Positions 15,304 to 51,152 of a stretch of 64,000 nt of DNA are shown in pieces (positions within the stretch are counted from its first letter, which is position 1; the number at the start of each line of letters is the position of its first letter). The stretch is from Octopus sinensis (Eukaryota), in assembly GCF_006345805.1 (NCBI RefSeq), contig NC_043016.1, positions 32,912,115 to 32,976,114 on the forward strand, written 5' to 3'. The notes under the pieces are model-generated. The model was not told where the DNA came from, made no database searches, and saw nothing but the letters and a program-made list of their open reading frames with translations. The translations under genes were made by a program, and so were the position numbers.

Positions 15304-15370
<67 letters not shown>

Positions 15371-17814: not shown

Positions 17815-17866
17815 TGTGATATAACATCAAAGTTTTCTGGACATATCACTGTCAAGTTACACAGGA

Positions 17867-18895
17867 ATGCCAATATCTGTGAAAATGCTTTGTCTAAAAC
17901 GTTATTTATGTTTATTATTTTTCTTTTCTTTATTTGCTTGCACACTTGTGTTCATTGGGATGAAAATGCTCCAGAAAAATGAATTGAAATCACAAATTTT
18001 AAAAAGTGAACAAAAGAACTATTCTCAAAATCTTCAAGGTGTAATCAGCCAGTCAGTTGAAATTGCTAAAGATATTATGAAAAAACATAATTTAGTTTTA
18101 TTTACTTTTATTAACAATGCTTATTTACCTTTTGTCTATAGTTGGTTGTGTAACACTGTTAATATGGGTATCCATGAGCAAATTCTCTTTATTACTACAG
18201 ATGCTATATCAAAACAACAATTTGAGAAGGATTGGCCTAATGTCAAAGTTGTTGTGTTGCCCATTACTTCACTAAATGGTAATCAAACTTATAGTAAAGT
18301 TGGTTATGTAAAACTAATGGTGAAACGTACAGAAATTTTAAATTCTTTATTGCAGAATGATATTGAATTGCTCTTATTTGAAGTTGACTGTCTTTGGGTT
18401 TCTAATCCTCTTGATGAATGCAAAAAAATAGCATTGAAAAATGATATGATAGTTACAAGTATTGCTGGCAGAAAAAATACTGCTGCTGGAAATTTCATAT
18501 ATATGAAGCCTACAAAAGCTGTGAAAACTCTCTTGCAAGAACTGAATTCAAAGATGAGACGTCTTGGCAAAGAAATTGAAGGAAAAGATGATAATAAACT
18601 TGTATCTGAAAGTAAAAATGACCAGGTATACTTGAGCGAACTTATTAATAAACGATTTGGTGGAATAAAATATGAAGTTCTTCCATTTGACAGATATATT
18701 GATGGAAAATGGTATGAAATGAAATTAGAAAATCGTCAGAAGAAACATGTTGTTATTATTCACAATAACTGGGTAGTTGGAAATGCAAAAAAGTTAAAAC
18801 GAGCCAAAAAATTTGGACATTGGTTTATAGATGACTCAATGAAATGTAAAATGGATCAAGTTGACAGAGTAGTTAACCGTGGGTTGTATGTGTAA
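17867..18895 (+). CDS. Nucleotide-diphospho-sugar transferase (PF03407 / GT77-like, xylosyltransferase-like), type II membrane protein, copy L
   Basis: Intact 342-aa ORF. Short basic N-tail plus hydrophobic anchor (aa ~13-31); FTFINNAY..SWLCN, FEVDCLWVSNP (DxD position), NDQ, HNNWVVG..K..R....W motifs. Confidence 0.88.
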   Translation: MPISVKMLCLKRYLCLLFFFSLFACTLVFIGMKMLQKNELKSQILKSEQKNYSQNLQGVISQSVEIAKDIMKKHNLVLFTFINNAYLPFVYSWLCNTVNMGIHEQILFITTDAISKQQFEKDWPNVKVVVLPITSLNGNQTYSKVGYVKLMVKRTEILNSLLQNDIELLLFEVDCLWVSNPLDECKKIALKNDMIVTSIAGRKNTAAGNFIYMKPTKAVKTLLQELNSKMRRLGKEIEGKDDNKLVSESKNDQVYLSELINKRFGGIKYEVLPFDRYIDGKWYEMKLENRQKKHVVIIHNNWVVGNAKKLKRAKKFGHWFIDDSMKCKMDQVDRVVNRGLYV

Positions 18896-19856
18896 TTTAA
18901 ATCAGGGTTAAATATATTCTTTGGTTTCAACATCACATTTGTATTCATTTTTGGTTTCCTTCTAACATTTTTGGTTCTCATCAGCTGAACATTAGTACAC
19001 CGGCATACCTGTACTCTCTTTTACTCTCTTTTAGAGAGTATATTTATATTTATGTAGTATATTTATATTTGAGATTTATTTAATCAGTAATTAAAAATAC
19101 ATCAATATATACTCAAAACATATACAATAGGAATTTTGTTCAGAATATTAAGCAGGCATTCAGTTTCTGAAGCCATTGAAGAAGCTTCTCTGTAGTCACT
19201 CAGTAGGTACCTAATATTCTTCAAATTTAACTTAGCGTCCTAAAAGTAATGGATAAATTGATCTGAGCATCTCTACATAGTAAGTAAAGAAAGCAAACAA
19301 CTAAAATACCCATGGATATTGCATTACCACAGAAACAAAAGAACAAATGAGTTGCATAAACAATACATTCTTGTTTAGGCCTACAATCTTTTCAGCAGCT
19401 CTCAATAAATTACAAAAAAAATAAAAATACAAATCACTGCATATTTCTAGCATTTCATCAATAAACCAAATTCTTAATTACACGAAAACACTAAAAATAA
19501 AAGACTATATAAACAGGAATGAGACACAGTTGCTGTGGTAAACACCAACCTTCACAATCCCTACCATTTCATGTACAACTATCTCAAGTATATATGTATA
19601 TATGCACAAATGCGAAAACTCATTGACTTGCATATATATACATATGTGTGTGTTTGTGTGTGTGTGTCTCTGTGTATATGTTTGCATCAGTTTGTCGTGC
19701 TAGTCTATTTGAAACCCATGTAGCTAATTAAATTGTTTACAATGCCTCATTATTCTCTGTATTTTCTCTCACTCTCACTCCCTGTATACATCTGTGTGTA
19801 TACGTGTGTGTGTATATGTATGTGCATATATTTGTGTGTGTGTGTCTGTGTGTATG

Positions 19857-19889
<33 letters not shown>

Positions 19890-19984
19890 CTGTGTGTATG
19901 TATGTATATACATATATTTATATATATATGTATATGTGTGTATATATATATGTATATGTGTGTATATATATGTATATATGTATA

Positions 19985-20768
19985 TAATGTCGGCGTCACT
20001 TTCTCATCATGAATGATGTCCATATTGTTCATGAAGCAGAGATCCAGAATGTTATTTACCCTAATTGGTCTGAGTACTGCTTGCTCCATGAATAGGGCAT
20101 TGGTGAGGTTGAGCATGGACTCCACCTGTGCTTGCTTGCAATGAGTCAATCCTTAGAGTATGTGACCTTTGGGCCATTTGACGTTGTGTAAGTTGAAATC
20201 ACCCATAAGAAATATGGTCATGTGGTGATCCAGATTCATGAGGATTTCTTTAATTCTTGTGAAGCAATCTTCAAACTTGACTATGTGGTTTGGAGCATCT
20301 GGTGGGCAATATGTATTGCATATGACTATATTATGTTGTCTTATGTATACAATTAGAGTGTCACATACTGAATTTGAGTATGACAGTAAGACCTGTGGTG
20401 TGAGGTCGACATGGAGGTATACAGCAACTCCACTATGACTCCTTTCCCTTCTGTCTGTTCATAGTCTGGCATATTTTGGTATGTGTACTTCTGCATCCTC
20501 TATATCAAGGCTGAGGTGAGTTTCCATGAGTGCTATGCATAGGGCTTGATTGCATGCAGTAAGATCTCTCAGGAAAGAAATTTTGCTTTTATTGTGATGC
20601 AAAAGGCCCCCAATATATAGTAAAAGTATTCGTGTGATGACTGTACAGGCGTTAGGGGAGGCCATCCCGTGTCTGTTGACTGTGGTGGACAAGGTTCCTT
20701 GTTTGTGCTTGAAGTTGCCAGGTCAGCTGCTGCACAATCTTTTGTGCCATGTACAAAAAAGACTCTTG
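19985..20768 (-). mobile_element. CR1-like LINE fragment (apurinic endonuclease region)
   Basis: IALMETHL, GVAVY, MGDFNL, NNILDLCFMN motifs with stops. Confidence 0.75.
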
Positions 20769-23213
20769 CTCAGTTGCTGGCTAGGAAATCGTTAATTAGA
20801 TATAATAATAAATTATGGGCTAGGAAGGATACTAGAGACTATTTTGATATACCTATGGGGGCACCAGATTCTGCACAGGCTACTGATTTAGTAGGTATTT
20901 TTTTATCAGAACTTCAATTAGAAAATTTTAATTTAGAGGGTGGTCTATATAGGGATGAGCTTTTATTACTTACTAGGGATTGTACAAATAGAAAATTAGA
21001 ATTATATAAAAAGAAACTTTATAATTTCTTTAAAAGATATGGTTTAAGTATTACTATTTATAATGAGAACTATAATGTTAATTATTTAGATGTTAATTTT
21101 ATTTAATAATGGGTGAAACCCAACCATTCCATAAAATTAACGAAAATCTGAAATATATTCATTCTTATAGTAATCATCCACCTTCTGTTAAAGAATCGTT
21201 GATAAATAATGTAGGTAAAAGAATATCATTACTTGCTTATGATTTAGAGATTTTTAATAAACATGCACCTTGTTATAATAAAGCCCTGCATGATGCAGGA
21301 TATAATAATAATATTAAATTCTTTAATACTTGTAAACATAATTATAATTTGAAGGAGTATAATATAAATGATTTTTATAATGATAAACCTAATTATCTGA
21401 ATTATGATAAATTTTATTTAGGTATCTATCATCCTAATAATAATAGGTATTTTGATGATGTAAATAATACATTTAATATTGGAATGAAAAATAAAAATAA
21501 GATAAAATTAAATTCAATTAATGAAGATAATAAATTTAATATTACAAAAAATATAATAATAATAATATAAAAATAAAATATGGTTAATCGTTCCTTTTGG
21601 GGTTCAGTTTAAAGTAAATCTTATTAAAAGGATTTTAAATATAATTGAAATATTCATTATGGATAATAAAAAATATAACATTTTTTCTACTAATAATTTT
21701 GGAGTTGGGTATTCAACTACTACTAATGTGGTAATATTTCTTCATTTAATACATTTAAATTAAATAAATTCTACAAAGATATATTAAACATTGATTCCAA
21801 TAATAAAAAAGACCAAGATATAATTTATTGTACATGTAGGGATAAAACTACATGTAAATTTAATAATTGTAATTTAGATAATGTAGTCTATAAGTGTATG
21901 GTAACTTTAATAGATGATAAGAATTTGAATTATCATAATTTAAACACTATTTATATAGGGTCCACTTTGAATAAAATTAAATCTAGAGTAGCACAACATA
22001 TGTATTCTTTTAGGAATAAAAATCTAATAAATTCAACAGGTCTCAGTAAATATATTTGAGACCTTAGATCTAGATCTATTAAATATGAATTAACTTGGGA
22101 GATTATTTGTAGGGCTAAATCATATTCTATATGGAGTAATTATTGTTCATTGTGTAATAATGAATTAAAAGAAATATTATTTAATAACAACTATGTGTTA
22201 GTAAACTCATTAGAGGAACGTAAAATTAAATGTAAACATCAATTAAATTACCTATATAATAGGTTTAGCTAATAAATGATTATATAAATTGATTAAGATA
22301 TATTAATTATAGTAATATATATTAATTTAAATATGATATATATATTTTACTTATTTATTATTTGAACTTTAAATTTATAGTAAAAAGTCATTTAAAATTA
22401 AATGCTAACATAATTTATTTATCTATATGATACGTTTAGCTTATTTTTCCGTATGTATAAAACCTTATCTCTTTTTATGTTATTTATTGTAGATATAATT
22501 TAGTAGTATTAGTGTATAATTTACTATATTATTATGTGTTATATTAATATATTTGAATAATTTTAAACTTAGATATTTCCTAATACATAAATGATTATTT
22601 ATAATTTTATTAAGACCTATTAATTATAGTAATATAAATTAATTTAATATTATATGTATATTTTATGTAATAATTATTTGGTAATTAATTTATAGTAAAT
22701 AGTCATTTATAGTTCTTTTGTTATTCTATTTTTCTTTCATTCATGAAGCTTAAATATTTTTCGTCTTTTTCATTAATAAATATTTTTCATCATTTTCATT
22801 GATAATATTATTATATTTTTTACACGTCTTCACGAGTTTAATTTCTTATAAACGCTAAGTAATGTTTTTTATTTAACAATATTATTTAACTTTTAAATTG
22901 TATTAAGTTTGATTATTATTATGATTATTATTGTAGCTAAAATATTAATTTATATATAATTTATTGATAATTATTAGTTACGATATGTATATCTATTTAT
23001 TTATTATGTTTTATGATTATTATTAATTTTATAATGTGATTTAACGAATTATATAATTTAATTTGAGAATTAGTTTTGTAAGACAATATATTATTTAAAG
23101 GTTAGGTGGTCTATTTATTTCATAGTATTACATTTAAGTAAATTAGTTTAATATTAATTAATATTTTGGTCAACTATATAATTGAATAAAATAATAAATC
23201 TATATATATACTA
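20769..23213 (+). mobile_element. Penelope-like element 3, very AT-rich, 5'-truncated, plus AT-rich 3' region
   Basis: FDIPMGAPDSAQATDLVG, GGLYRD, NYLDV, YIHSYSNHPPS and GIY-YIG VVYKC..IYIGST..KSRVAQH; frameshifted. Confidence 0.85.
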
Positions 23214-26157
23214 CATCATCATCGTTTAACGTCCGCTTTCCATGCTAGCATGGGTTGGACGGTTCAACTGGGGTCTGGGAAGCCCGAAGGCTGCACCAGG
23301 CCAGTCAAATCTGGCAGTGTTTCTACAGCTGGATGCCCTTCCTAATGCCAACCACTCCGTGAGTGTAGTGGGCGCTTTTTACGTGCCACCGACACATGTG
23401 CCAGACGAGGCTGGCGAACGGCCACGCTCGGATGGTGCTTTTTATGTGCCACCGGCACGGAGGTAAGGCGAGGCTGGCAATGGCCACGATTGGATCGTGT
23501 TTGTTACATGCCACGGGCACAGAGGCCAGTCGATACGGCGCTGGCTACGGCCACGTTCGGATGGTTCTCTTACATGCCACCGGCACTGGTATCACAACTA
23601 CAAATTCCATTGATGTTGATCGATTTCGATTTTCACTTGCCTCAACAGGTCTTCACAAGTAGAGTTTTGTGTCCCAAGAAGGAAGGTATGTATAGGTGGA
23701 CTGACTACGTCCCAGGTAGAGGCCACGGGTTATGGCCTCACTTGTCCTGCCGGGTTTTCTCACGCACAGCATACTTCCAAAGGTCTCGGTCTCCGGTCAT
23801 TTCCTCGGTGAGACTTAAAGTTCGAAGGTCGTGCTTCACCACCTCGTCCCAGGTTTTCCTGGGTCTACCTCTTCCACAGGTTCCCTGAACCACTTGGGTG
23901 TGGCACTTTTTCACACAACTATCTTCATCCAATTTTACCACGTGTCCATACCAGTGTAGAGGTCTCTCTTGCACACCATGTCTGATGCTTCTTAGGTCCA
24001 ACTTTTCTCTCAAGGCACTTACACTGTGTCGGCTATGAACACTGACATTACACATCCATTGGAACATACTGGCTTCATTTCTTGCAAGCTTACGCATATC
24101 CTCAGCAGTCACGGCCCATGTTTCACTGGCATGTAGCATGGCTGTTCGTACACATGCGTCATACAGTCTGCCTTTTACTCTGAGCAAGAGGCCTCTTGTT
24201 ACCAGCAGAGGTAAGAGCTCTCTGAACTTTGCCCAGGCTATTCTTACTCTAGCAGTTACACTTTCAGCACACCCGCTCCCGCTACTGACTTGATCACCTA
24301 GGTAATGGAAACTATCAACTATTTCTAGGTTTTCTCCCTGGAGTGTGGCGGAAGATGGTATCTGCGCATTTTCAGTGTTTCTTTCACCAGAGCATGTGCC
24401 ACATACAAAAAGTATCTTCCCAGTTAGCCTTCCTTTGACATTGCTGCACCTCTTATGTGTCCATAGCTTACACTTGGTGCATCTTACTACGCCTTTTCTA
24501 CAGATCGAGCAGGGCCATCTACCTGAAGGCGTTTGTGATTTGTCTACCTTCCTATTTATTAGGACTTTGGTTTTAGCTAGGTTGACTCTAAAGCCTTTCG
24601 ATTCTAATCCTTGCTTCCACACCTGAAACTTCTCCTCCAGTTCTGATAGTGACTCAGTAATTAGTGCAAGGTCATCAGCATAGAGGAGCTCCCAGGGGCA
24701 TTCTGTCTTGAATTCCTCTGTTATTGCCTGGAGGACTATGATAAATAGGAGTTGGCTGAGGACTGAGCCTTGGTGAACCCCTACCCCTACCCGGAATTCT
24801 TCACTGTACTTGTTGCCAACCCTCACCTTATTAACAGCGTCCCTGTACATGGCTCGCACAGCTCTCACTAACCATTCATCTATCCCTAGTTTCCTCATTG
24901 ACCACCAGATAAGGGATCGGGGCACCCTGTCAAAGGCTTTCTCCAAGTCAACGAAAGCCAGGTACAGAGTTTTATCTTTGGCAAGGTATTTCTCCTGCAG
25001 CTGTCTCACCAGAAATATGGCATTGGTAGTGCTTTTCCCTGGCATGAAACCGAACTGTATCTCATCCAGGTTGACTCTCCCCCCAATCAGTTGGGCTATG
25101 ACCCTTTCCGTAACCTTCGTTACCTGATCTAACAGCTTGATACCTCTGTAATTACTTGTATGTAGGGCGCCACCTTTACCGTTGTAGCAGTTGACTATTA
25201 TGCTACTACACCAGTCATTGGGTATGACTCCTTCGTGTATCACCTGGTTAACTATACGGGTGACTAGGCTATAGCCGACACTGCCAGATATTTTGAGCAT
25301 CTCTGCAGTAATTCCTGATGGGCCTGGGGTTTTCCCTGTCTTCATGCTTCTAATTGCCTTAACTACCAAGGAACTGTCAACTTGGATAGCTGGTCCCTCT
25401 GTTGGGTCGACATTCGGCAGACTCTCTTTATCCCATTTATTTTCTTTATTCAGCAACCTTTCATAGTGGCATCTCCAAACCTCTCTCTTTGCATCCTCAT
25501 TTAGTGCAAGTGAACCATCATCTATGTGAACACATTTCTCTCTTACCACATCACGGTTCTCTCTCACATACTGTCTTCCCTCCTCATTGCGAGAACCAAA
25601 ACCGTAGTCTCCATGTATGCCGTGGAAGCCCCCGACATGCCGTCCAACATGTCCATTGAAGTCCCCTGCCACAAAGAGAAGGTCTCTGTCATTTGTCAAC
25701 GAGGTAGTCTGTAATAGGGTGTCATAGAATCGGTCTTTCTATCCTTCAGGTAGCCCCGGTTGAGGGGCAGATGCCAAGTTGATGGTAGCTGACCTATGAT
25801 GAAGCACTAATCTAATCTTAAGTATTCTGTCACATACTCTGACTACCTCGTTTACCTTATCAACCCATTTCTCTGCAAGAAGTATACCCATGCCCCCGAC
25901 CCCGTCAGTGTTCCCTGCCCAGAAAATCTTGTACCTGTGTTCTTTGCCGGTGAGGAACCTAGCGGAACCTCCTCTCCACCTTACTTCTTGGATGCAGCAC
26001 AAATCCAAACGTCTCCGTTCAAGCAGCTCGATAATCTCACCAGACCTACCTTTCAATGTGCAAACTCTGAGGGTGTGGGAGGTGTGGGCCTGCGAGACCC
26101 TGGGATGAGGGACAGCAATGGCAGATTTCATAAAGAAACACTAGAAACACCAGACTA
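23214..26157 (-). mobile_element. RTE-clade LINE, copy A (internally deleted)
   Basis: ORFs 25739-26131 (CCIQEVRW endonuclease) and 23738-25699 (GDFNGHVG, QFGFMPGKST, GVHQGS, LLYADD, PHD-like CSIC..C..C..W.H..C, GRPRKTW); (GAT)n tail. Lacks ~650 bp present in copy B (28743-29396). Confidence 0.93.
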
Positions 26158-26709
26158 ACCTGCATACACTACACAGTTTTTTTGCGCTATATGACCGAAT
26201 AAGTCCTACAATAGGGTTGTGGGTGAGTGTCCGCGGGAGGGGATGCACATGTAAGACTGAGGTACTAACTTCCGGTTTTGGTGGAGGGAGGTATGACCGG
26301 TTTTTGTAGAGAGGTACTGACTTCCAGTTTTGGTGGAGGGGCGGGACTACCGCGAAACAGCAAATGTCGAAAAGCGTGTGCCAAGAGCTGAAAGCCGAAA
26401 TTTTTAAGGGAATTTGGGAGAAAAGGACAACCTGAAATAAAGGAGGAATATAGAAAATGCATCGTCTAAGACAAATAGAAAGCTAGCGGCATCCTGTTTA
26501 CAAGACAGAGAGATAAATAATAGAGAGGGACAAGATAGAGAGATAAATAATAGAGAGCGGAAGGCGTTAGTGTTACAGATCTACGCATAAACAGTAATGG
26601 ATGAGGTTAAAGTCAAAATAGGTTAGCTGCTCATTTCTGAAACCCGAGTTTTATCATCCGAAGCAATGAGAATCAGTAGAATATCTTTATTATGATCATG
26701 GTGATCTTA

Positions 26710-28600
26710 CATAAAATGAGACAATACAGGACAAACAAAAGACAAAGATGTTACATGAGTTCGCATTGTATAAATATTAAAAATTAACTTACATAATATG
26801 TATTTTATATATCGTTTGAAAAAAATTAGAACTTTGATGTAAACTGAAACTAAGTCATAGAAACACACGAACAAAACGTTATAGGTCGCACCTGTAAGGT
26901 CCTGCAACGAACTTTTCCTTTCCTCAATGATTAAGCTGGGTTACTAACACCCACCTTTCTCATCACATCCTTCCGTTGTTTCTCGAATACTCTCGGTGGC
27001 AGGGTCCTCCTCTCCAGCCCCATCTTGCTCTTCAGATGGTATCTGAAGTAGGTCAGCAAACCGGGGCCTGAGATGAAAGACCCTTTCACCGCACCTTCCA
27101 TCCTCGTTCTCCAGACGCACTCTTTCAATATTGCAACCGTACAGTAAAAACATGCTTTACCTTCCTCTGTGAGTCCAGCTGGCGGAATCATCTTTATCAT
27201 AGATTCAGCTGACAGCTGTACTCGCCCCAAATGCGACAGCACGTGTTTGACGTAACTCATCAAGCTAGATAGCTCCCGACATTGCACAATAGCGTGCTGG
27301 ACAGTTTCCTTGTCTACCCCGCATCTTGGACACGTCGGTGACACTGGTACTCCGTGTCTGGATAACTTATCTCGAACAGGTAAAGCGTTCCTATAACACT
27401 GCCAGGTCAGGGAAGTTATCCAAATACCCCGACCTGAAAGTTTTTTTAAACAGGTTGGCGAGTTGGTTCTCATCGAACCCCAGAGCCCTTCCTAGGACGT
27501 CATCGTTCTTTTCCTCTACCAGCCCTCTATAGAACACCGAGGTGGTATTCCCACTGCTGGCCTTGCCCGCCTTATGGATCAGCCAGAGTGCCTGATGGCA
27601 CTCCTTCTGCCATAAAGTCAGGTTCGTCTTTTAATGAGACCGGGTTTAAATCCCTCCAAGGAGGCCGGTCGCGGCAAGAGCTCCTCCGCCAGCGGACTTC
27701 ACACCCTATCACTCTTCAAGTGGCACCAGAGATGTCTCAGCCTCAACGCATGTCTGCGCATCATCAGCCAGGGCATCCCCAGTCCGCCTTTTAACGGTTC
27801 CTGGCAGCAAACGGAGCTCTTCACAAGTGGATTTCCTCCCTTCCACAAAAAGCGGAAGATGATTCGCTCCAACTTGTTCATCCACGAATCGGGCAAGGCA
27901 CCACGGACAGGCGGTAGGTGATTACAGATGCTACAAACACCTGCACTACCTCCGCCCTGCCCTTCAAGGACAGAGGCCTTCCGGACCACTTCTGTACTAT
28001 AGCCTCCACCTTTTCACTGCCTCGCTCCAATTCTTCTCCGCCTGTGAGTCCGGAGCAAACAAACTCCGAGCAACTTAACAGGATATTGTCCAATGTCCGA
28101 CGACACTGGACGATATCGGCTTGTTCCTCCAGGTGCCGAAACGCAAACCGATGGACTTGTCCTTGTTAACTTTTGCCCCTGCCACCGCTTCGTATCTTCG
28201 GAGAGTACCTTCTATACGAGGCAGTTGTGCTTCGTCGGACACGATGAGGGTGACGTCATCTGCATAGGCGGAAACAGACCTACCGCATGCGATTTCATTT
28301 GGGTTGCCTCCTAACTTCTCCAACCTCCGCAGTAATGGCTCAATAGCCAAAACGAACAGAAGTGGAGACAAAGGACAACCTTGACGAACAGAACGCGTGA
28401 TCGAAAACGGCTCCGTTAGGTAGCCGTTTATCTGGACTGTGGATTTTATGCCGCTGTACATAGCGGAGATCCACCCGCAAAAGCCAGGGCCCAGCCAGCC
28501 GCTTCGAGGACCGCCCCCAGGTACTGATGGTCTACCCTATCGAACGCTTTACATTTGTCTAAATGGACCAATGCCCCTCCCTTGCCGGCTAATTTCCCAA
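26710..28600 (-). mobile_element. L1/Tx1-clade LINE ORF2 3' portion, frameshifted
   Basis: SVRQGCPLSPLLF, AYADD, IFRFLWKG, GGLG and zf-RVT-like LPVRDKL..CPRCG..ETVQHAIVQC. Confidence 0.85.
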
Positions 28601-28636
28601 CCCTGTCTAAGGTGTAGCGTAGAAGGTGAAGGTTAT

Positions 28637-36895: not shown

Positions 36896-37404
36896 TAGTA
36901 TATATAGATTTATTATTTTATTCAATTATATAGTTGACCAAAATATCAATTAATATTAAACTAATTTACTTAAATGTAATATTATGTAATAAATAGACCA
37001 CCTAACTTTTAAATAATATATTGTCTTACAAAACTAATTCTCCAATTAAATTATATAATTCGTTAAATCACATTATAAAATTAATAATAATCATAAAACA
37101 TAATAAATAAATAGATATATATATATCGTAACTAATAATTATCAATAAATTATATATAAATTAATATTTTAGCTACAATAATAATCATAATAATAATCAA
37201 ACTTAATACAATTCAATAGTTAAATAATAGTTAAATAGAAAACATTACTTAGCGTTTATAAGAAATTAAACTCGTGAAAACGTTGTGTAAAAAATAGAAT
37301 AAAATTATCAATGAAAATGACGAAAAATATTTATTAATGAAAAAGACGAAAAATATTTAAGCTTCATGAATGAAAGAAAAATAGAATAACAAAAGAACTA
37401 TAAA
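36896..37404 (-). repeat. Third copy of the AT-rich RTE flank
   Basis: Direct repeat of 43222-43702 and reverse complement of ~22728-23213. Confidence 0.9.
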
Positions 37405-40245
37405 CTTAGATATGTTTCGACCAAAGATTGGTCCAGGCCATGTCTAACTTAATAGCACCACCTGATAGGATTATTCGAACCCTGTTTAAGTCAAGTTTTG
37501 TTTATGGTCCATTCAAGTAGTGAGTTCTTGTTGGGTGAGTTGTATCCAATTATGGGTGGCTTATCTAGTATTCTTTGAAGGAATCTATGCAGACTCCGTT
37601 TAAAATTGATGGGATCCTTTTCCTCTTTGATCTCCCTCGGGACAATGTTAAATAGGGCAGGGCCTGTTGAGGAAAAGAAATTATGTTGCAGTGTACATGT
37701 ATGCTGTGATCTTGAATTGGGCAGGGGACGTATGGCCCGTGGTCCCAGTCTTGGATGAAACCTGAAGCTAATGTTCAGGTCGATTGGGCAAAGTTGGCGG
37801 TATATTCTCCACATCGTACAAATGATGTACCGCTCACGGCGAGGCTGGAAAGTGTAAAGTTTCAAGGCTTTAAGGCGATCCCAGTAATCGAGAGCAGCCA
37901 TGCCTTCAATTCGTTTAGTGAGTGCCCTCTGGGGTGACTCAATCCTCGAGATGTTTTGTCTTGTATGGGGAGACCACAGTGGGCAGCAATATTCAAGGTG
38001 TGGCCGTGCACCTTGTTCTCTGGACCGGAAAGTTCTTAAGATCCAGGAACTCATCCTACGAGCTATATCGACCTTCTTGTTGATGTGTGCACTCTAACTG
38101 AGATCGTCATCAACAATTACACCTAGGTCTCTGATATTGTTAGAGGCTATGAGCGGTTCCCCTGAAGGAAGAGAGTATGGCTGTTTCAGTGAGGAGTTTC
38201 TTCCAAAATGCATCTGCTCAAATTTTCCCTCGTTCAGTTGCATTTTGTTTCTGTCTGCCCATTGATTCACAGCATATAGATCAGACTGGAGTTGAGTTCG
38301 GTCTGCTTCTTCATTGACGATTTGCTGGAGCTTAGTGTCATCAGCAAATATTTTCACTTTGCAGTAATGTACGACACTGGAAAGGTCGTTTATGTAAATT
38401 ATGAAGAGTAGCGGACACAAGACAGTCCCCTGGGGGACACCGCTGGTGACTTTTGCTGGGCTTGAGTGGACTCCATCAACTACAACATGTTGTGTTCTAT
38501 TTGCCAGGAAATACTTAATCCAGTGTAGAACTTTTCCACGGATTCCAACGTTTGCCAATTTTGAGAGTAGGATATTATGGTCTACCCTGTCGAACGCTTT
38601 ACTGAAGTCAAGATATATGACGTCAGAGTTCGAACCTGTTCCCAAGGCTTTGAGTACATCTTCAATGTGGTGTAAGAGCTGTGTTAGACAGTCCCTGCCA
38701 CAGCGAAAGCCATGCTGATTTGCATTTAGGAGTTTGTGGGTCTCCAGGAAGTCAGCTATCCTTGATCTTAACACTCTTTCAAACACTTTAATGATGTGGG
38801 AGGTGAGTGAGATTGGGCGATAGTTGAGTGCGAGGGATCTGTTTCCCTGTTTGAAAACCGGGATGACCGACTGGGATAGAAACTATTTCGGTATATAACC
38901 TGCGTCTAATGAATTTCTCCAGAGGTTGGTCAGAGTGACTGCAAGTTGGTGTCTACATTCCTTCAGGAGACTAGCGGGGAATCTATCAGGGCCTACAGCA
39001 GAGTAGTATTTGACCTCATTTATTGCTGCTACGATGTCAGTGGCAGTGAAGGTTATGTCTGAGATTTTATGTTGGGAGTCAACTTCGTTCGCTTCTCTTA
39101 CGTCAATATCAGTGGGAACACTATAGACAGAACAGTATTGTTTCTGCAATATTTCTGCCATTTCTTTAGCATCGTGTTGGGGAATGCCGTTATCATCAAT
39201 CAATGGCCCAATGGGTGAGACAGTGGTTCTATGCTTATTTGCATAAGAATAGAACATCTTTGGGTTCTGTTTGATGCTTTTGATTACCCACTGTTCCTCC
39301 ACAGCTCTTTGATTTTCAATGGAGGTTTTCATGTCGGTCTGCAGATGAAGCTTTTCCAGCTCTAGCCTTTTCATTGTTGTTGAATGTGGATGATGTATGA
39401 GGGAATATCTTAATTGGTTGATTTTTTTGTTGAGTCTTTTGATGCGCCTGATGAGTGCTTTTATTCTTTTTAGGGAGCCGGTTACTGTTAGTGTTAGTAG
39501 ATTTCGTGGGAGCGTGTTTAGAGCATGTATAGATGACAATGTTTTCAAAGTGCTGCCATGCGGTCTCAATATGGGTGGAATTGTAAGTAAAAGACCAGTC
39601 GATGAAAGACAGATCCTTTCTGATTGCTCCCCAGTCCGCTTTGTGGAAGTTTATGTTGTCAAATGAGTGGGATTGGCTGGTTTGGTTTTTATATGTCGGG
39701 AATTAAAATTGCAGAGTACCATGTGGTCTGAGAGGAGAGTTTTTTCAACTGAAATACTGTGAACGAAGCTAGAGTGATTGGTCAATACCAGATCCAAGGT
39801 CATTTTATTCTGTCTCGTTGGTTCGAGCACTAGCTGAGTGAGGAAGTATTCATACATCAGATTAAAGAGCAGTTCTGCTGCTGCTCTATCTGATGTAGAG
39901 CATTTGCCTAACTTCAGAGTATTTGTGGGCCAGTTCACATGAGGGGGGTTAAAATCACCCATCACTAGTATGTTTCCGGAGTGGTACTTCCGGAGGAAGG
40001 ACTTGACTTTGCTAAGGCACTCTTCAAAACACTTTAGAGGTGCTTGGGGAGACCTGTAAAGACCAACAATGATTATGTCCTTGGCCTTGCTGAATAGTGA
40101 TACTGATTCACGATAGCCATTGGAAAATATGTCCTTGGCATCAAGTGAAAAGGAGTCATGGATAAAGATGGCTGTCCCTCCCTTATTTCGGTCTGTGCGA
40201 TCCGCACGAACAATGGTGAAATCTTTTATTTTCACCTCGGCGTCC
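37405..40245 (-). mobile_element. CR1-like LINE, 5'-truncated ORF2 (endonuclease + RT), with stops and frameshifts
   Basis: RADR..KGGTAIF, MGDFN, TLDLVL, NYRPISLTS, QHGFR, YLDFSKAFDRV, SGVPQGTVL, IFADD, RPHLEYCCPLWSP. Confidence 0.92.
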
Positions 40246-40262
40246 ATTAGAAGCATGAAGCA

Positions 40263-43187
40263 TAAGGCAATTAGAAGCATGAAGACAGGGAAAGCCCCAG
40301 GCCCATCAAGAATTACTGCAGAGATGCTCAAAATATCTGGCAGTGTCGGCTATAGCCTAGTCACCCGTATAGTTAACCAGGTGATACACGAAGGAGTCAT
40401 ACCCAATGACTGGTGTAGTAGCATAATAGTCAACTGCTACAACGGTAAAGGTGACGCCCTACATACAAGTAATTACAGAGGTATCAAGCTGTTAGATCAG
40501 GTAACGAAGGTTACGGAAAGGGTCATAGCCCAACTGATTAGGGAGAGAGTCAACCTGGATGAGATACAGTTCGGTTTCATGCCAGGGAAAAGCACCACCA
40601 ATGCCATATTTCTGGTGAGACAGCTGCAGGAGAAATACCTAGCCAAAGATAAAACTCTGTACCTGGCTTTCGTTGACTTGGAGAAAGCCTTTGACAGGGT
40701 GCCCCGATCCCTTATCTGGTGGTCAATGAGGAAACTAGGGATAGATGAATGGTTAGTGAGAGCTGTGCGAGCCATGTACAGGGACGCTGTTAATAAGGTG
40801 AGGGTTGGCAACAAGTACAGTGAAGAATTCCGGGTAGGGGTAGGGGTTCACCAAGGCTCAGTCCTCAGCCCCCTCCTATTTATCATAGTCCTCCAGGCAA
40901 TAACGGAGGAATTCAAGACAGAATGCCCCTGGGAGCTCCTCTATGCTGATGACCTTGCTCTAATTGCTCAGTCACTATCAGAACTGGAGAAGTTTCAGGT
41001 GTGGAAGTAAGGATTAGAATCGAAGGGCCTGTAGTGACGTTATTTTCCAGTGTGCGCACAGGCAACGTCATTCTTCAGTGTGCGTGTGCGGAACGTAATT
41101 CCTCAGTGTGCGTGTGCAGAACGTAATTCTTCAGTGTGCGTGTGCGGAGCTGGAACCTTCTGGAAAGGCCTGAGGAAGTTCCCTCATGCACATGCGCTAG
41201 AGACTGGGGAAGAAAATTCTTTCGCGTTCCTTGTTAGCGTCGTTGACTTGAGAAACGGCTATTGAAGAGAAAGGACGTGTGAAACGTGTGATCAGCCATT
41301 CTCCTGTTCCTGACGCTTGGGATTTGACCTGCTCTGTTGCTGCTAAATTTGTTGTAAGAATCTTACAAATGTTAAAATTCAGCCTTGCTATATTTAACCA
41401 AGTGGATACCAATATACCAACGTGCTTCATTTGTAAATAAGAGAATAAAGAATCATATATATTTTTAAAGTTGCGTTTTGTTCCTGACTGGTAGGTTCTG
41501 GAAACAAGGCTGAATTTTAACAGTTGTAAGATTCTTACAACAAATTCAGCAGCAACAGACCAGGTCAAATCCCAAGCGTCTAGAACAGGAGAATAGCTGA
41601 TCACACGTTTCACACGTCCTTTCTCTTCAATAGCCGTTTCTCAAGTCAACGACGCTAACAAGGAACGCGAAAGAATTTTCTTCCCCAGTCTCTAGCGCAT
41701 GTGCATGAGGGAACTTCCTCGGGCCTTTCCAGAAGGTTCCAGCCCCGCACACGCACACTCAAGAATGACGTTTCGTGTGCGCACACTGGAAAATGACGTC
41801 ACTACATGCCTTAGAGTCAACCTAGCTAAAACCAAAGTCCTAATAAATAGGAAGGTAGACAAATCACAAACGCCTTCAGGTAGATGGCCCTGCTCGATCT
41901 GTAGAAAAGGCGTAGGTAGGAATTCTATAAGATGCACCAAGTGTAAGCTATGGACACATAAGAGGTGCAGCAATGTCAAAGGAAGGCTAACTGGGAAGAT
42001 ACGTTTTGTATATGGCAGATGCTCTGGTGCAATAAACACTGAAAATGCGCAGAGATCATCCTCCGCCACATTCCAGGGAGAAAAACTAGAAATAGTTGAT
42101 AGTTTCCATTACCTAGGTGATCAAGTCAGTAGCAGGGGTGGCTGTGCTGAAAGTGTAATTGCTAGAGTAAGAATAGCCTGGGCAAAGTTCAGAGAGCTCT
42201 TACCTCTGCTGGTAACAAAAGGCCTCTCTCTCAGAGTAAAAGGCAGACTGTATGACGCATGTGTACGAACAGCCATGCTACATGGCAGTGAAACATGGGC
42301 TGTGACTGCTGAGGATATGCATAAGCTTGCAAGAAATGAAGCCAGTATGTTCCAATGGATGTGTAATGTCAGTGTTCATAGCCGACACAGTGTAAGTGCC
42401 TTGAGAGAAAAGTTGGACCTAAGAAGCATCAGACATGGTGTGCAAGAGAGACCTCTACGCTGGTATGGACACGTGGTAAAATTGGATGAAGATAGTTGTG
42501 TGAAAAAGTGCCACACCCTAGCGGTTGAGGGAACCTGTGGAAGTGGTAGACCCAGGAAAACCTGGGACGAGGTGGTGAAGCACGACCTTCGAACTTTAAG
42601 TCTCACCGAGGAAATGACCAGAGACCGACCTTTGGAAGTAGGCTGTGCGTGAGAAGACCGGGCAGGACAAGTGAGACCATAACCCGTGGCCTCTACCTAG
42701 GACGTAGTCAGTCCACCTGTGCATACCTTCCTTCTTGGGACACAAAACTCTACTTGTGAAGACCTGTTGAAGCAAGTGAAAATCGAAATCGATCAACATC
42801 AATGGAATTTGTAGTTGTGATACCAGTGCCGGTGGCATGTAAGAGAACCATCCGAACGTGGCCGTAGCCAGCGCCGTATCGACTGGCCTCTGTGCCCGTG
42901 GCATGTAACAAACACGATCCAATCGTGGCCATTGCCAGCCTCACCTGACCTCCGTGCCGGTGGCACATAAAAAGCACCATCCGAGCGTGGCCGTTCGCCA
43001 GCCTCGTCTGGCACATGTGTCGGTGGCACGTAAAAAGCGCCCACTACACTCACGGAGTGGTTGGTATTAGGAAGGGCATCCAGCTGTAGAAACACTGCCA
43101 GATTTGACTGGCCTGGTGCAGCCTTCGGGCTTCCCAGACCCCAGTTGAACCGTCCAACCCATGCTAGCATGGAAAGCGGACCTAAAC

Positions 43188-43221
<34 letters not shown>
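40263..43221 (+). mobile_element. RTE-clade LINE, copy C (begins mid-ORF2), interrupted by foldback element
   Basis: Reverse complement of copy A 23214-25361; ORFs 40120-41010 and 41699-42652 carry the RT and C-terminal parts; (GAT)n tail. Confidence 0.93.
41030..41806. mobile_element. 777-bp non-coding foldback element made of inverted Gypsy-type LTR 5' ends
   Basis: Ends TGTAGTGACG...CGTCACTACA; arms 41030-41387 and 41505-41806; flanks GGCC/TGCC; empty site in copy B is aagGGCCttagag. Confidence 0.85.
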
Positions 43222-45645
43222 TAGTATATATAGATTTATTATTTTATTCAATTATACAGTTGATCAAAATATCAATTAATATTAAACTAATTTACTTAAT
43301 TGTAATATTATGTAATAAATAGACCACCTAACTTTTAAATAATATATTGTCTTACAAAACTAATTCTCGAATTAAATTATATAATTCGTTAAATCACATT
43401 ATAAAATTAATAATAATCATAAAACATAATAAATAAATAGATATACATATCGTAACTATATATAAATTAATATTTTAGCTACAATAATAATCATAATAAT
43501 AATCAAACTTAATACAATTCAAAAGTTAAATAATATTGTTAAATAAAAAACATTACTTAGCGTTTATAAGAAATTAAACTCGTGAAGACGTGTAAAAAAT
43601 ATAATAATATTATCAATGAAAATGATGAAAAATATTTATTAATGAAAAATTAATTTAAGCTTCATGAATGAAAGAAAAATAGAATAACAAAAGAACTATA
43701 AATGACTATTTACTATAAATTAATTACCAAATAATTATTACATAAAATATACATATAATATTAAATTAATTTATATTACTATAATTAATAGGTCTTAATA
43801 AAATTATAAATAATCATTTATGTATTAGGAAATATCTAAGTTTAAAATTATTCAAATATATTAATATAACACATAATAATATAGTAAATTATACACTAAT
43901 ACTACTAAATTATATCTACAATAAATAACATAAAAAGAAATAAGGTTTTATACATACGGAAAAATAAGCTAAACGTATCATATAGATAAATAAATTTATG
44001 TTAGCATTTAATTTTAAATGACTTTTTACTATAAATTTAAAGTTCAAATAATAAATAAGTAAAATATATATATCATATTTAAATTAATATATATTACTAT
44101 AATTAATATATCTTAATCAATTTATATAATCATTTATTAGCTAAACCTATTATATAGGTAATTTAATTGATGTTTACATTTAATTTTACGTTCCTCTAAT
44201 GAGTTTACTAACACATAGTTGTTATTAAATAATATTTCTTTTAATTCATTATTACACAATGAACAATAATTACTCCATATAGAATATGATTTAGCCCTAC
44301 AAATAATCTCCCAAGTTAATTCATATTTAATAGATCTAGATCTAAGGTCTCAAATATATTTACTGAGACCTGTTGAATTTATTAGATTTTTATTCCTAAA
44401 AGAATACATATGTTGTGCTACTCTAGATTTAATTTTATTCAAAGTGGACCCTATATAAATAGTGTTTAAATTATGATAATTCAAATTCTTATCATCTATT
44501 AAAGTTACCATACACTTATAGACTACATTATCTAAATTACAATTATTAAATTTACATGTAGTTTTATCCCTACATGTACAATAAATTATATCTTGGTCTT
44601 TATTATTATTATTGGAATCAATGTTTAATATATCTTTGTAGAATTTATTTAATTTAAATGTATTAAATGAAGAAATATTACCAACATTAGTAGTAGTTGA
44701 ATACCCAACTCCAAAATTATTAGTAGAAAAAATGTTATATTTTTTATTATCCATAATGAATATTTCAATTATATTTAAAATCCTTTTAATAAGATTTACT
44801 TTAAACTGAACCCCAAAAGGAACGATTAACCATATTTTATTTTTATATTATTATTATTATATTTTTTGTAATATTAAATTTATTATCTTCATTAATTGAA
44901 TTTAATTTTATCTTATTTTTATTTTTCATTCCAATATTAAATGTATTATTTACATCATCAAAATACCTATTATTATTAGGATGATAGATACCTAAATAAA
45001 ATTTATCATAATTCAGATAATTAGGTTTATCATTATAAAAATCATTTATATTATACTCCTTCAAATTATAATTATGTTTACAAGTATTAAAGAATTTAAT
45101 ATTATTATTATATCCTGCATCATGCAGGGCTTTATTATAACAAGGTGCATGTTTATTAAAAATCTCTAAATCATAAGCAAGTAATGATATTCTTTTACCT
45201 ACATTATTTATCAACGATTCTTTAACAGAAGGTGGATGATTACTATAAGAATGAATATATTTCAGATTTTCGTTAATTTTATGGAATGGTTGGGTTTCAC
45301 AACATTATTAAATAAAATTAACATCTAAATAATTAACATTATAGTTCTCATTATAAATAGTAATACTTAAACCATATCTTTTAAAGAAATTATCAAGTTT
45401 CTTTTTATATAATTCTAATTTTCTATTTGTACAATCCCTAGTAAGTAATAAAAGGTCATCCCTATATAGACCACCCTCCTACTTAAATTTTTCTAATTGA
45501 AGTTCTGATAAAAAAAATACCTACTAAATCAGTAGCCTGTGCAGAATCTGGTGCCCCCATAGGTATATCAAAATAGTCTCTAGTATCCTTCCTAGCCCAT
45601 AATTTATTATTATATCTAATTAAAGATTTCCTAGCCAGCAACTGA
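43222..45645 (-). mobile_element. Penelope-like element 3, right-arm copy
   Basis: Mirror of 20769-23213; ORFs 45483-45665, 44843-45214 and 44350-44754. Confidence 0.85.
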
Positions 45646-46420
45646 GCAAGAGTTTTTTTGTACATGGCACAAAAGATTGTGCAGCAGCTGACCTGGCAAC
45701 TTCAAGCACAAACAAGGAACCTTGTCCACCACAGTCAACAGACACGGGATGGCCTCCCCTAACGCCTGTACAGTCATCACACAAATACTTTTACTATATA
45801 TTGGGGCCTTTTGCATTACAATAAAAGCAAAATTTCTTTCCTGAGAGATCTTACTGCATGCAATCAAGCCCTATGCATAGCACTCATGGAAACTCACCTC
45901 AGCCTTGATATAGAGGATGCAGAAGTACACATACCAAAATATGCCAGACTATGAACAGACAGAAGGGAAAGGAGCCATAGTGGAGTTGCTGTATACATCC
46001 ATGTCGACCTCACACTGCAGGTCTTACTGTCATACTCAAATTCAGTATGTGACACTCTAATTGTATACATAAGACAACATAATATAGTCATATGCAATAC
46101 ATATTGACCACCAGATGCTCCAAACCAAGTTTGAAGATTGCTTCACAAGAATTAAAGAAATCCTCATGAATCTGGATCACCACATGACCATATTTCTTAT
46201 GGGTGATTTCAACTTACACAACATCAAATGGCCCAAATGTCACATACTCTAAGGATTGACTCATTGCAAGCAAGCACAGGTGGAGTCCATGCTCAACCTC
46301 ACCAATGCCCTATTCATGGAGCAAGCAGTACTCAGACCAATTAGGGTAAATAACATTCTGGATCTCTGCTTCATGAACAATATGGACATCATTCATGATG
46401 AGAAAGTGACGCCGACATTA
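45646..46420 (+). mobile_element. CR1-like endonuclease fragment, right-arm copy
   Basis: Mirror of 19985-20768. Confidence 0.75.
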
Positions 46421-46487
46421 TATACATACATATATATACACATATATATATAAATATATGTATATACATACATACACAGACACACAC

Positions 46488-46522
<35 letters not shown>

Positions 46523-47498
46523 CATACACACACACATACATATATACATATATACACATACATACATATAAACATATACATACATACAGATAAGTATATA
46601 TATATATATATATACACACATATATGCACACACATATACACACACATGTATACACACAGATGTATACAGGGAGTGAGAGTGAGAGAAAATACAGAGAATA
46701 ATGAGGCATTGTAAACAATTTAATTAGCTACATGGGTTTCAAATAGACTAGCACGACAAACTGATGCAAACATATACACAGAGACACACACATATGTATA
46801 TATATGCAAGTCAATGAGTTTTCGCATTTGTGCATATATACATATATACTTGAGATAGTTGTACATGAAATGGTAGGGATTGTGAAGGTTGGTGTTTACC
46901 ACAGCAACTGTGTCTCATTCCTGTTTATATAGTCTTTTATTTTTAGTGTTTTCGTGTAATTAAGAATTTGGTTTATTGATGAAATGCTAGAAATATGCAG
47001 TGATTTGTATTTTTATTTTTTTTGTAATTTATTGAGAGCTGCTGAAAAGATTGTAGGCCTAAACAAGAATGTATTGTTTATGCAACTCATTTGTTCTTTT
47101 GTTTCTGTGGTAATGCAATATCCATGGGTATTTTAGTTGTTTGCTTTCTTTACTTACTATGTAGAGATGCTCAGATCAATTTATCCATTACTTTTAGGAC
47201 GCTAAGTTAAATTTGAAGAATATTCGGTACCTACTGAGTGACTACAGAGAAGCTTCTTCAATGGCTTCAGAAACTGAATGCCTGCTTAATATTCTGAACA
47301 AAATTCCTATTGTATATGTTTTGAGTATATATTGATGTATTTTTAATTACTGATTGAATAAATCTCAAATATAAATATACTACAGGTATGCCGGTGTACT
47401 AATGTTCAGCTGATGAGAACCAAAAATGTTAGAAGGAAACCAAAAATGAATACAAATGTGATGTTGAAACCAAAGAATATATTTAACCCTGATTTAAA

Positions 47499-48527
47499 TT
47501 ACACATACAACCCACGGTAAACTATTCTGTCAACTTGATCCATTTTACATTTCATTGAGTCATCTATAAACCAATGTCCAAATTTTTTGGCTCGTTTTAA
47601 CTTTTTTGCATTTCCAACTACCCAGTTATTGTTAATAATAACAACATGTTTCTTCTGACGATCTTCTAATTTCATTTCATACCATTTTCCATCAATATAT
47701 CTGTCCCATGGAAGAACTTCATATTTTATTCCACCAAATCTATTCCGAATAAGTCCCGTAAAGAATACCTGGTCATTTTTACTTCGAGATATAAGTTTAT
47801 TATCATCTTTTCCATCAATTTCTTTGCCAAGACGTCTCATCTTTGAATTCAGTTCTTGCCAGAGAGTTTTCACAGCGTTTGTAGGCTTCATATATATGAA
47901 ACCTCCAGCAATAGATCTTTTTCTGCCAGCAATACATGTAACTATCATATCATTTTCCAATGCTATTTTTTTGCATTCATCAATAGGATTAGAAACCCAA
48001 AGACAGTCAACTTCAAATAAAAGAATTTCAATATCATTCTGCAATAAAGAATTTAAAATTTCTGTACGTTTCACCATTAGTTTTACATAACCAACTTTAC
48101 TATAAGTTTGATTACCATTTAGTGAAGTCTCGGGCAACACAACAACTTTGACATTAGGCCAATCCTTCTCAAATTGTTGTTTTGATATAGCATCTGTAGT
48201 AATAAAGAGAATTTGCTCATGGATACCCATATTAATAGTGTTACACAACCAACTATAGACAAAAGGTAAATAAGCATTGTTAATAAGAGTAAATAAAACT
48301 AAATTATGTTTTTTCATAATATCTTTAGCAATTTCAACTGACTGGCTGATTACACCTTGAAGATTTTGAGAATAGCTCTTTTGTTCACTTTTTAAAATTT
48401 CAGATTTCAATTCATTTTTCTGGAGCATTTTCATCCCAATGAACACAAGTGTGCAAGCAAATATAGAAAAGTAAAATAATAAACATAAATAACGTTTTAG
48501 ACGAAGCATTTTCACAGATATTGGCAT
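47499..48527 (-). CDS. Nucleotide-diphospho-sugar transferase (PF03407 / GT77-like), type II membrane protein, copy R
   Basis: Intact 342-aa ORF, colinear with copy L without indels; 310/342 identical residues by manual alignment. Confidence 0.88.
   Translation of the reverse strand: MPISVKMLRLKRYLCLLFYFSIFACTLVFIGMKMLQKNELKSEILKSEQKSYSQNLQGVISQSVEIAKDIMKKHNLVLFTLINNAYLPFVYSWLCNTINMGIHEQILFITTDAISKQQFEKDWPNVKVVVLPETSLNGNQTYSKVGYVKLMVKRTEILNSLLQNDIEILLFEVDCLWVSNPIDECKKIALENDMIVTCIAGRKRSIAGGFIYMKPTNAVKTLWQELNSKMRRLGKEIDGKDDNKLISRSKNDQVFFTGLIRNRFGGIKYEVLPWDRYIDGKWYEMKLEDRQKKHVVIINNNWVVGNAKKLKRAKKFGHWFIDDSMKCKMDQVDRIVYRGLYV

Positions 48528-51021: not shown

Positions 51022-51152
<131 letters not shown>

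Follow-up and report, generated by a model that had tools for sequence, protein, structure and literature searches.

The window, by which we mean the whole 64-kb stretch of Octopus sinensis DNA analysed here, was compared with itself by BLAST. It contains two inverted arms of about 22 kb each. For most of their length they show 99.8% identity, and each carries one glycosyltransferase gene. The left arm (2099..24594, + strand) contains copy A, and the right arm (41808..64000, - strand), which is cut by the scaffold end, contains copy B. The spacer between the arms (24595..41807) is made up largely of LINE/retroelement fragments. The contig of the window is the end of the scaffold, which stops at window base 64000, and the adjoining contig is 99.3% identical and has the same palindrome layout. 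Two further copies, C and D, lie just upstream of the window copies and are probably a second haplotype. The coding sequence (CDS) of copy A (17867..18895, + strand) is one exon encoding 342 aa, with a PF03407 glycosyltransferase domain and an N-terminal hydrophobic anchor; its conserved start is probably Met7 at 17885. The CDS of copy B (47499..48527, - strand) also encodes 342 aa. A splice acceptor (polypyrimidine tract and AG) is predicted at 17800..17814 (+ strand), 52 nt before the first ATG of copy A, from the sequence and from a tblastn search with copy C's RefSeq model; its mirror on the copy B side ends near 48580 (- strand). The upstream exon of this RefSeq model was rejected as a coding exon because it sits in a dispersed repeat with more than 40 matches, and it probably patches the frameshift of copy C.

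Both products match PF03407 (Pfam Nucleotid_trans) with 80.7 and 79.6 bits against a cut-off of 22, over profile positions 2-207 of 208. This was the sole Pfam family at an E-value of 0.001 or better, so no GT6 signature was found at that threshold, and a Protein Atlas search returned PF03407 clusters only. Searching PDB chains with two profiles gave chance matches only and no significant sequence match. The predicted structures have pLDDT values of 92.3 and 93.3. The model of copy B matches GT8, GT24 and GT6 chains of the GT-A fold, its best matches being retaining GT-A enzymes; it aligned with Gat1 6mw5 (Z 14.8, rmsd 3.6, 212 aligned) and BoGT6a 4ayl (Z 14.5, rmsd 3.3, 200 aligned). The sequence and the models show a type II anatomy with a short basic N-tail, a hydrophobic helix (aa 8-31) and a stem, and the models have a long N-terminal helix. 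Both genes are GT77-like type II glycosyltransferases with, on the evidence of the models, a predicted GT-A fold. We found no known activity for an enzyme of this PF03407 subfamily in the literature searched.

Recomparison of the 1029-nt ORFs of copies A and B reproduced exactly the counts in an earlier note on this DNA: 46 nucleotide differences in 35 codons, of which 32 are replacement codons and 3 (S42, L169 and R263) are silent. As also described there, every silent codon adjoins a replacement codon (chance about 0.004), 9 codons carry 2-3 changes, and 20 of the 32 replacements lie within aa 191-299. The number of multi-hit codons is correct but carries less weight than had been given to it, since clustering is also seen for 34 of the 92 differences in the flanks; in neutral simulation the probability of at least 9 such codons rises to 0.03 under the clustered flank spectrum. 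An imprint of RNA editing was considered and rejected: sense-strand A/G versus C/T differences are 14 versus 4, yet 28 of the 46 differences are transversions.

The DxD position is occupied by E172-V-D174 (18380..18388, + strand, in A; 48006-48014, - strand, in B), the PF03407-subfamily form of this motif, which is the same in all octopus copies. The relatives have E in 131 of 139 cases and D in 8, consistent with a subfamily variant. Codons 204-210, the predicted G-loop as placed by motif register, read NTAAGNF in A (18476..18496, + strand) and RSIAGGF in B (47898-47918, - strand). Codons 238-263 (18578..18655, + strand, in A; 47739-47816, - strand, in B) are a hypervariable segment around the invariant N251-D252-Q253 at the xED-position motif; its aa 238-249, a predicted loop, show many charge-swapping changes. 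Codon 299 is His in A (18761..18763, + strand) and Asn in B (47631-47633, - strand). Judging from motif register, G209N is likely the ABO-268 position, and codon 299 would be that of the C-His, a predicted metal ligand. In ABO, according to excerpts of the published account, G-loop residues bind the donor and the C-His binds the metal (PMC7185993). Copy A has the derived residues N209, L223 and H299. Copy B keeps the ancestral I206, G209, W223 and N299, and has the derived residues R248, T257 and G258. Among non-cephalopod close homologues, G209 was found in 44/44 and N299 in 31/32. In more distant relatives, among them proteins of Owenia, Priapulus and Mytilus, N209 occurs in 21/136 and H299 in 23/123; because both residues are found there, the copy A states are natural alternatives. 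Replacements at 43, 51, 335 and 337 fall outside the motif windows.

The earlier note had treated A and B as a twin pair, but the locus is more than that. In addition to C and D, at least five copies exist in O. vulgaris, and public runs contain further variant blocks. Of the 9 octopus sequences, 3 (C, D and CAI9734449) are frameshifted or truncated, as would also be expected if spare copies were decaying. The locus is multi-allelic and mosaic. In O. vulgaris, too, A-type and B-type lie on one chromosome. Copies A and B each cluster with an O. vulgaris protein in a tree that sorts by type, which indicates that the variant lineages predate the species. Over aa 177-342, A and the O. vulgaris A-types are separated by 2 sites, and B and its match in that species by 5, as compared to 23 between A and B. 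With an O. vulgaris counterpart for each of them, the difference between A and B is not a haplotype artefact. These matches, and the position of both genes in one contig around a unique spacer, agree with the proposal that A and B are glycosyltransferase paralogues and speak against the alternative raised with it, that the arms are two haplotypes. The copies are probably both paralogues and ABO-like alleles, depending on the level considered.

Blocks of A-, B/C-, C- and D-type were recovered in independent contigs of public runs. An extra all-replacement block (L150I, K153Q, T155E, I166V) was present in 4/4 public runs examined and in two O. vulgaris proteins; public contigs carry this block and all four copies lack it, therefore an unassembled copy or allele exists. 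Runs X2 and X9, whose RNA origin is a guess, both gave A-type G-loop contigs. In X2 the B-type was found as well, with equal depth, and one of the contigs of this run breaks off 3 nt away from the predicted acceptor, leaving 33 letters over; transcription is not thereby shown. An external donor paralogue was rejected, as the assembly has only 4 loci matching the protein or PF03407 and only 4 full 3'-flank matches in a search that scored the best candidates only.

Arm divergence was computed with tandem arrays and gap edges masked. Copies A and B differ at 45/1012 sites in the CDS (4.45%) and at 21/10151 in the outer arm (0.21%; Fisher p=7e-32), 22/3736 in the inner flank (0.59%) and 48/1568 in the innermost LINE-derived 1.6 kb (23001..24594; 3.06%). 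The CDS is thus a divergence peak over the outer flank, as had been claimed, but the peak is not confined to it, the innermost LINE stretch also reaching 3%; this stretch is likely a minimum age marker for the duplication. The near-identity of the gene flanks was borne out. Upstream there is a single AT-unit indel at 17771, with zero substitutions from 16243 to 17890. Downstream, 114 bases are identical and are followed by an indel of 43 bp (19010..19052, + strand), a segment present in A and D and absent from B and C. The CDS and flank divergences are 1.28% vs 0.03% for A-D (Fisher p 1e-11) and 1.98% vs 0.07% for B-C (Fisher p 6e-16). The recombination between copies that the earlier note assumed is evident: 46/351 biallelic site pairs violate the four-gamete rule, some of them explicable by recurrent mutation. 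Arm C is A-like at 4/6 outermost sites and B-like further in. Very recent conversion should leave flank sites of the AB|CD pattern; there were 0 of these vs 83 of the AD|BC pattern, in units too young for much power (outer arm 0.03-0.07%). The arms are likely kept alike by recombination.

The explanation that we favour, with a confidence somewhat better than even, is that A and B are paralogous GT77-like enzymes in a palindrome likely homogenised by recombination, where selection likely retains and favours changes around the predicted substrate pocket that would lead to different, ABO-like terminal sugars. We consider it rather unlikely that A and B are instead old balanced alleles of one gene, fixed together by the inverted duplication as a permanent heterozygote. 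Their divergence would then predate the duplication; selection would still be involved, and a long conversion history would be unnecessary. Such an origin would fit the small distance between the outer arms, the same pattern in the allelic-level pairs A-D and B-C, and a CDS that is more diverged at its silent sites (3 of about 243) than is the outer flank (p=0.018). However, the divergence of the inner arm and several spacer insertions point to an older duplication, and both types share one chromosome in O. vulgaris as well.

For the preferred reading of selection on homogenised paralogues, the near-identical flanks are a built-in neutral control and therefore make a codon-level reading of selection possible. 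The A-D pair differs by 11 replacement and 0 silent codons, and B-C by 16 and 0. When neutral evolution was simulated with the clustered spectrum of the flank itself, the silent deficit had P=0.012, 0.042 and 0.007 for A-B, A-D and B-C, respectively, and for A-B the probability of 3 or fewer silent codons was 0.006-0.012. Among the 329 codons kept, 2 of the 41 variable ones were silent-only. The island had been called almost purely non-synonymous; the silent deficit is indeed beyond chance, although only moderate for the A-B pair alone. The dN/dS of this pair was 2.6-3.6 by NG86 and 2.2 by ML, with 0.5 rejected. The expected omega above 1 was obtained in the four-copy codon model (2.8, p=0.012) but was not significant for A-B by ML (p=0.15 vs 1). 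A site model gave a 2dlnL of 63; recombination and clustered mutations inflate this value, and it should not be relied upon.

As the ML interval for A-B includes 1, the copies could be spare genes drifting under relaxed selection, with mismatch in the diverged tract suppressing conversion and leaving a neutral island. The frameshifted or truncated copies, the clustered mutations common in the flanks, and the alteration of A at three positions nearly invariant among close homologues are in line with such drift. Nevertheless we regard it as unlikely. The silent deficit is found in all three pairs, and 26/26 family-conserved residues checked are invariant across the 9 octopus sequences. Copy A has kept an intact ORF with its derived G-loop in two species, and the same codons have been struck repeatedly, with 3-5 states (up to 5 residues at codon 257 and 4 each at codons 245 and 248 across the octopus copies).

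In line with the selection hypothesis, the changes cluster at motifs lining the GT-A active site, as located by motif register. Variable sites occupy the predicted G-loop (204-206, 209), the surroundings of NDQ and the putative metal-His position; 35 of 55 lie in motif windows that cover 72 of 254 residues and were drawn after seeing the data. Selection might have acted on the protein itself as target or marker (a shed enzyme, a gamete or mucus protein, or the target of a pathogen inhibitor) and not on its sugar product. The charge swaps in the predicted loop, which could be surface-exposed, and the four changes beyond the motif windows would suit this idea. It seems quite improbable to us, since core GT-A motifs (the G-loop, the C-His position and the helix after NDQ) hold the changes that stand out most, and the anatomy is that of a type II Golgi enzyme. 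An assembly artefact, with A and B as haplotypes joined head to head or as base errors, is hardly credible: the nearly identical contig beside the scaffold-end contig shows that haplotype duplication does occur here, but it concerns C/D vs A/B and not A vs B, which share one contig and a unique spacer in a layout repeated next door, and whose types are matched both in O. vulgaris and in independent contigs.

By analogy with human ABO, selection likely keeps variant enzymes that would cap cell-surface glycans with different sugars. On this explanation, the inverted pair would have arisen in the O. vulgaris group by duplication of a single ancestral gene that was B/C-like. The outer arms would be homogenised by crossover and conversion, which would also shuttle short coding tracts among copies. 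The A lineage would have altered the G-loop (I206A, G209N), W223L and N299H, and the variation in B, C and D would lie in the loop and helix flanking NDQ (245, 248, 249, 257, 258, 261) and at 274. These replacements may alter which donor or acceptor is preferred by a retaining alpha-transferase of the Golgi, and the frameshifted or truncated copies may be null, O-like alleles. More speculatively, the acceptor could be a fucose, as it is in RGXT and in the squid ink glycan with its GalNAc-alpha1,3-Fuc branch, and a glycan-binding parasite or microbe could be the driver.

A more tentative possibility, to which we give perhaps a modest chance, is a cephalopod histo-blood-group locus whose flipping palindrome shuffles active-site cassettes (donor helix, G-loop and NDQ region) among copies. 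It would give each individual a glycan signature, nulls included, read by parasites or used for self/non-self. In a clam study available in excerpt, the QTL interval for Perkinsus resistance contains one homologue-named gene, one among many (PMC13504780), and therefore a parasite link is worth testing in farmed octopus. If true, the histo-blood-group reading would reveal the first glycan-type system of this sort among cephalopods, and the ABO switch position would have been used convergently in a second enzyme family. As a candidate for heritable glycan polymorphism, the locus is small and testable, and no comparable one in octopus was found in the literature searched. Its natural variants point to candidate specificity-setting residues in an animal GT77-like subfamily that has no sequence-level PDB relative.

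GT77/PF03407 includes the plant RGXT xylosyltransferases and the Dictyostelium alpha3-galactosyltransferase AgtA. The RGXT enzymes are alpha-1,3-xylosyltransferases that transfer Xyl from UDP-Xyl to L-Fuc, and their RG-II substrate is plant-specific. The octopus genes resemble this family in scoring above the Pfam cut-off and in type II anatomy, and they and other mollusc homologues have database names transferred from RGXT; because RG-II is plant-specific, this name gives no function for the octopus genes. They differ in belonging to a mollusc-rich, invertebrate, uncharacterised subfamily with ExD for DxD and mostly Asn at the His position. Islands of interlocus gene conversion are known from RHD/RHCE, the red/green opsins and MHC-type tract shuffling, where duplicates are homogenised save at selected sites. 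There, too, short tracts pass between copies, whereas the octopus island spans the entire single-exon CDS of 1 kb and appears again when the presumed alleles of each locus are compared.

Human ABO (GT6) variants differ in the G-loop by L266M and G268A, according to excerpts of two reports (PMC7185993, PMC6240514). The octopus copies are comparable in being predicted retaining GT-A enzymes that vary at the putative G-loop, with A207-G208-G/N209-F210 likely in the same register, and in coexisting with candidate nulls; GT6 structures are among the fold matches of the octopus model. In contrast to ABO, the octopus enzymes are PF03407 only, have 10-15% identity to the structural matches, and occur as several palindrome paralogues plus alleles with tens of replacements vs four. 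In the excerpted report on Daphnia magna, the Pasteuria Resistance Complex consists of fucosyl-/galactosyltransferase islands in non-homologous haplotypes with a mapped parasite phenotype (PMC11500718). The octopus arms are instead near-identical, differ almost only at coding sites and carry another enzyme family. The two systems are alike in being invertebrate glycosyltransferase clusters with gains, losses and cross-species persistence, which that excerpt links in Daphnia to balancing selection (PMC11500718).

Two inverted arms (window 2099-24594 and 41808-64000) carry copy A (17867-18895, + strand) and copy B (47499-48527, - strand), respectively, and enclose a 17-kb spacer made up of retroelement fragments. 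After masking of arrays and gap edges, A-B divergence was 0.21% in the outer arm (21/10151), 4.45% in the coding sequence (45/1012), 0.59% in the inner flank (22/3736) and 3.06% in the innermost LINE-derived stretch (48/1568). The peak in the coding sequence is real. The earlier note's claim that the coding sequence is more diverged than its non-coding flanks holds for the outer arm and inner flank, but the coding sequence is not the sole diverged part of the arms because the innermost LINE stretch is diverged too.

In and next to the spacer, three or four reverse-transcriptase (LINE) fragments (23738-25345, 29395-31363 and 40129-42840) are related at 93-98% identity. They mark where each arm ends on its inner side, and the inversion may have been seeded by them. 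A small inverted repeat in the spacer (41120-41772; 268-bp arms, 96% identity, 117 bp between) adjoins the right arm. A 293-bp tandem unit occurs three times in the left arm (6063-6937) and twice in the right (59520-60094). Mirror ORF fragments (4483-6035 and 60131-61668), with a 2-nt indel between copies at the 3' end, resemble a Penelope-like retroelement; no Pfam match was found for them at E 0.001.

The assembly holds four loci in the order D(+), C(-), A(+), B(-). Copies C and D lie on a 62-kb contig just upstream of the window (about 32849685-32911692), between two 100-N gaps, which is 99.3% identical to window 6349-64000. The main contig's end overlaps with where the window contig starts and also, in reverse orientation, with the end of the C/D contig. 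Among the 6 informative sites that lie outermost, arm C agrees with arm A at 4; from about 4900 inward it follows arm B. On the simplest reading, the C/D contig is probably a second haplotype that was retained and has its palindrome flipped, D being an allele of A and C of B, and the number of genes counted at this end of the scaffold may thus be inflated; it may instead be a true duplicate. Thirteen substitutions found only in arm D, in an AT-rich repeat remnant of about 500 bp opposite window 21510-22017, have the look of a tract converted by a different copy of the repeat.

Copy C lacks 1 nt near codon 19, a deletion that recurs in one contig of a public run (X5). The RefSeq model of this copy, XP_029648611, takes its first exon from a dispersed repeat (window 14877-14993 and 51457-51573); that exon probably compensates for the frameshift, and the annotation is likely wrong. 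Two indels 5' of codon 74 in copy D were absent from the public runs and are possibly errors. The first ATG (17867-17869) reads ATA in copy D as well as in one public contig, and other cephalopods do not conserve it; Met7 is the likelier start codon.

Five copies are annotated in O. vulgaris, all on a single 58.8-Mb contig (CAI9734449, 450, 453, 454 and 460); CAI9734449 stops at residue 176. Over residues 177-342, A is 2 sites away from two O. vulgaris proteins, and B is 5 away from one, versus 23 between A and B. The tree grouped sequences by A/B type across both species with moderate support, and D, whose flanks are 0.03% from those of A, shares G209, R249 and N257 with CAI9734450. The coding variants are therefore older than their own flanks, as homogenising exchange with selective retention would leave them. 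We regard the reading of A and B as captured old alleles as improbable. The octopus copies are mosaics, with all four gametes present in 46 of 351 biallelic site pairs. A further block (L150I K153Q T155E I166V), carried by none of A-D, occurs in two O. vulgaris proteins and, among the matches listed, in contigs of all 4 public runs examined.

Direct A-B comparison reproduced the reported 46 nucleotide differences in 35 codons, with 32 replacements, 3 silent changes and 9 multi-hit codons. Neutral simulation, with stop-containing runs discarded (711 and 835 of 6000 kept), gave 9-11 expected silent codons (P(<=3) = 0.006-0.012). The A-B dN/dS was 2.6-3.6 by NG86 and 2.2 by maximum likelihood, the latter different from 0.5 but not from 1 (p = 0.15). 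For A-B alone, the deficit of silent changes moderately exceeds chance. Multi-hit codons, pointed out in the earlier note, deserve less weight than they were given there (P = 0.03) because the flanks also often show clustered changes (34 of 92 differences). Clusters of 2-4 non-coding arm differences occur at 7775-7776, 12561-12565, 16239-16242, 20396-20397 and 20926-20935, and multi-nucleotide mutation seems common in these arms.

The pattern recurs in A-D (flanks 0.03%, coding sequence 1.28%; 11 replacement and 0 silent codons) and B-C (0.07%, 1.98%; 16 and 0), whether C/D is haplotype or duplicate. For the four-copy set, 13 codons were left out (codons 1-6, those in the frameshift zone and those at gaps); of the 329 that remained, 41 were variable, 2 of them silent-only, and one-ratio omega was 2.8 (p = 0.012). 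Diversifying selection probably acts on the protein. Relaxed decay of the copies is unlikely.

Both proteins match PF03407 and nothing else in Pfam. Close relatives are rich in molluscs and annelids, and matches at E 0.001 or better comprise 919 cluster representatives. AlphaFold models (pLDDT 93.3 for A, 92.3 for B) have identical secondary structure. Among retaining GT-A enzymes, the B model resembles Gat1 (Z 14.8, rmsd 3.6, 212 aligned) and BoGT6a (Z 14.5, rmsd 3.3, 200 aligned), besides UGGT, glycogenin and, via Foldseek, the human ABO enzymes GTA/GTB; the tied Z values of these predicted matches indicate fold, not function. Database names of the homologues derive from plant RGXT and are predicted labels.

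None of the 26 family-conserved residues checked, R154, E172, D174, N251, D252 and Q253 among them, varies across nine octopus sequences. Fifteen codons have at least three states, ten of them in residues 238-274, and codon 257 has five. Relative to outgroups, derived states are I206A, G209N, W223L and N299H in A and E248R and M257T, among others, in B. G209 occurs in 44/44 and N299 in 31/32 non-cephalopod close homologues; among wider relatives, N209 occurs in 21/136 and H299 in 23/123, carriers including Owenia, Priapulus and Mytilus proteins. The GT-A core comprises DxD, G-loop, xED and C-His; in ABO, the donor is bound by residues of the G-loop, and M266 stands one position before the conserved glycine (PMC7185993, Taujale et al. 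2020). By motif register, these would correspond to E172-V-D174 (DxD), A207-G208-G209 (G-loop), N251-D252-Q253 (xED position) and residue 299 (C-His). Residue 209 therefore likely corresponds to ABO 268, which is among the residues that switch between A and B (PMC6240514, table). An altered specificity between variants is predicted with reasonable likelihood; that the protein itself is selected as a target is unlikely.

The most likely reading, somewhat more probable than not, is that one ancestral gene was duplicated into an inverted pair, that arm-to-arm exchange would remove non-coding differences and shuffle coding tracts, and that selection would retain donor and acceptor pocket variants, such that copies and alleles may cap glycans differently, null copies being an additional type. 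There is only a very slight chance of an artefact. A parasite or microbe as driver is a tentative suggestion. RGXT enzymes, going by name, add Xyl alpha1,3 to Fuc. Dictyostelium AgtA, a GT77 member, is an alpha3-galactosyltransferase (PMC8724618), and GalNAc-alpha1,3-Fuc is present on a squid ink glycan (PMC5923393); fucose is thus a candidate acceptor by analogy, as a lead only. Mollusc glycans, oyster A-type structures included, mediate parasite recognition (PMC8699351).

A full-text search, with most subscription journals outside its coverage, found no literature on this octopus locus. Weak links are a gene of the same database name in a clam Perkinsus-resistance interval (PMC13504780) and another that marks a cluster of Capitella cells whose identity is unclear (bioRxiv 2020.10.16.342709). 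The divergence pattern is real and robust as a pattern, and the glycan role is predicted. The locus may work like ABO, although its enzymes belong to another family, and it is similar to the Daphnia Pasteuria Resistance Complex (PMC11500718), whose enzymes are likewise of another family.
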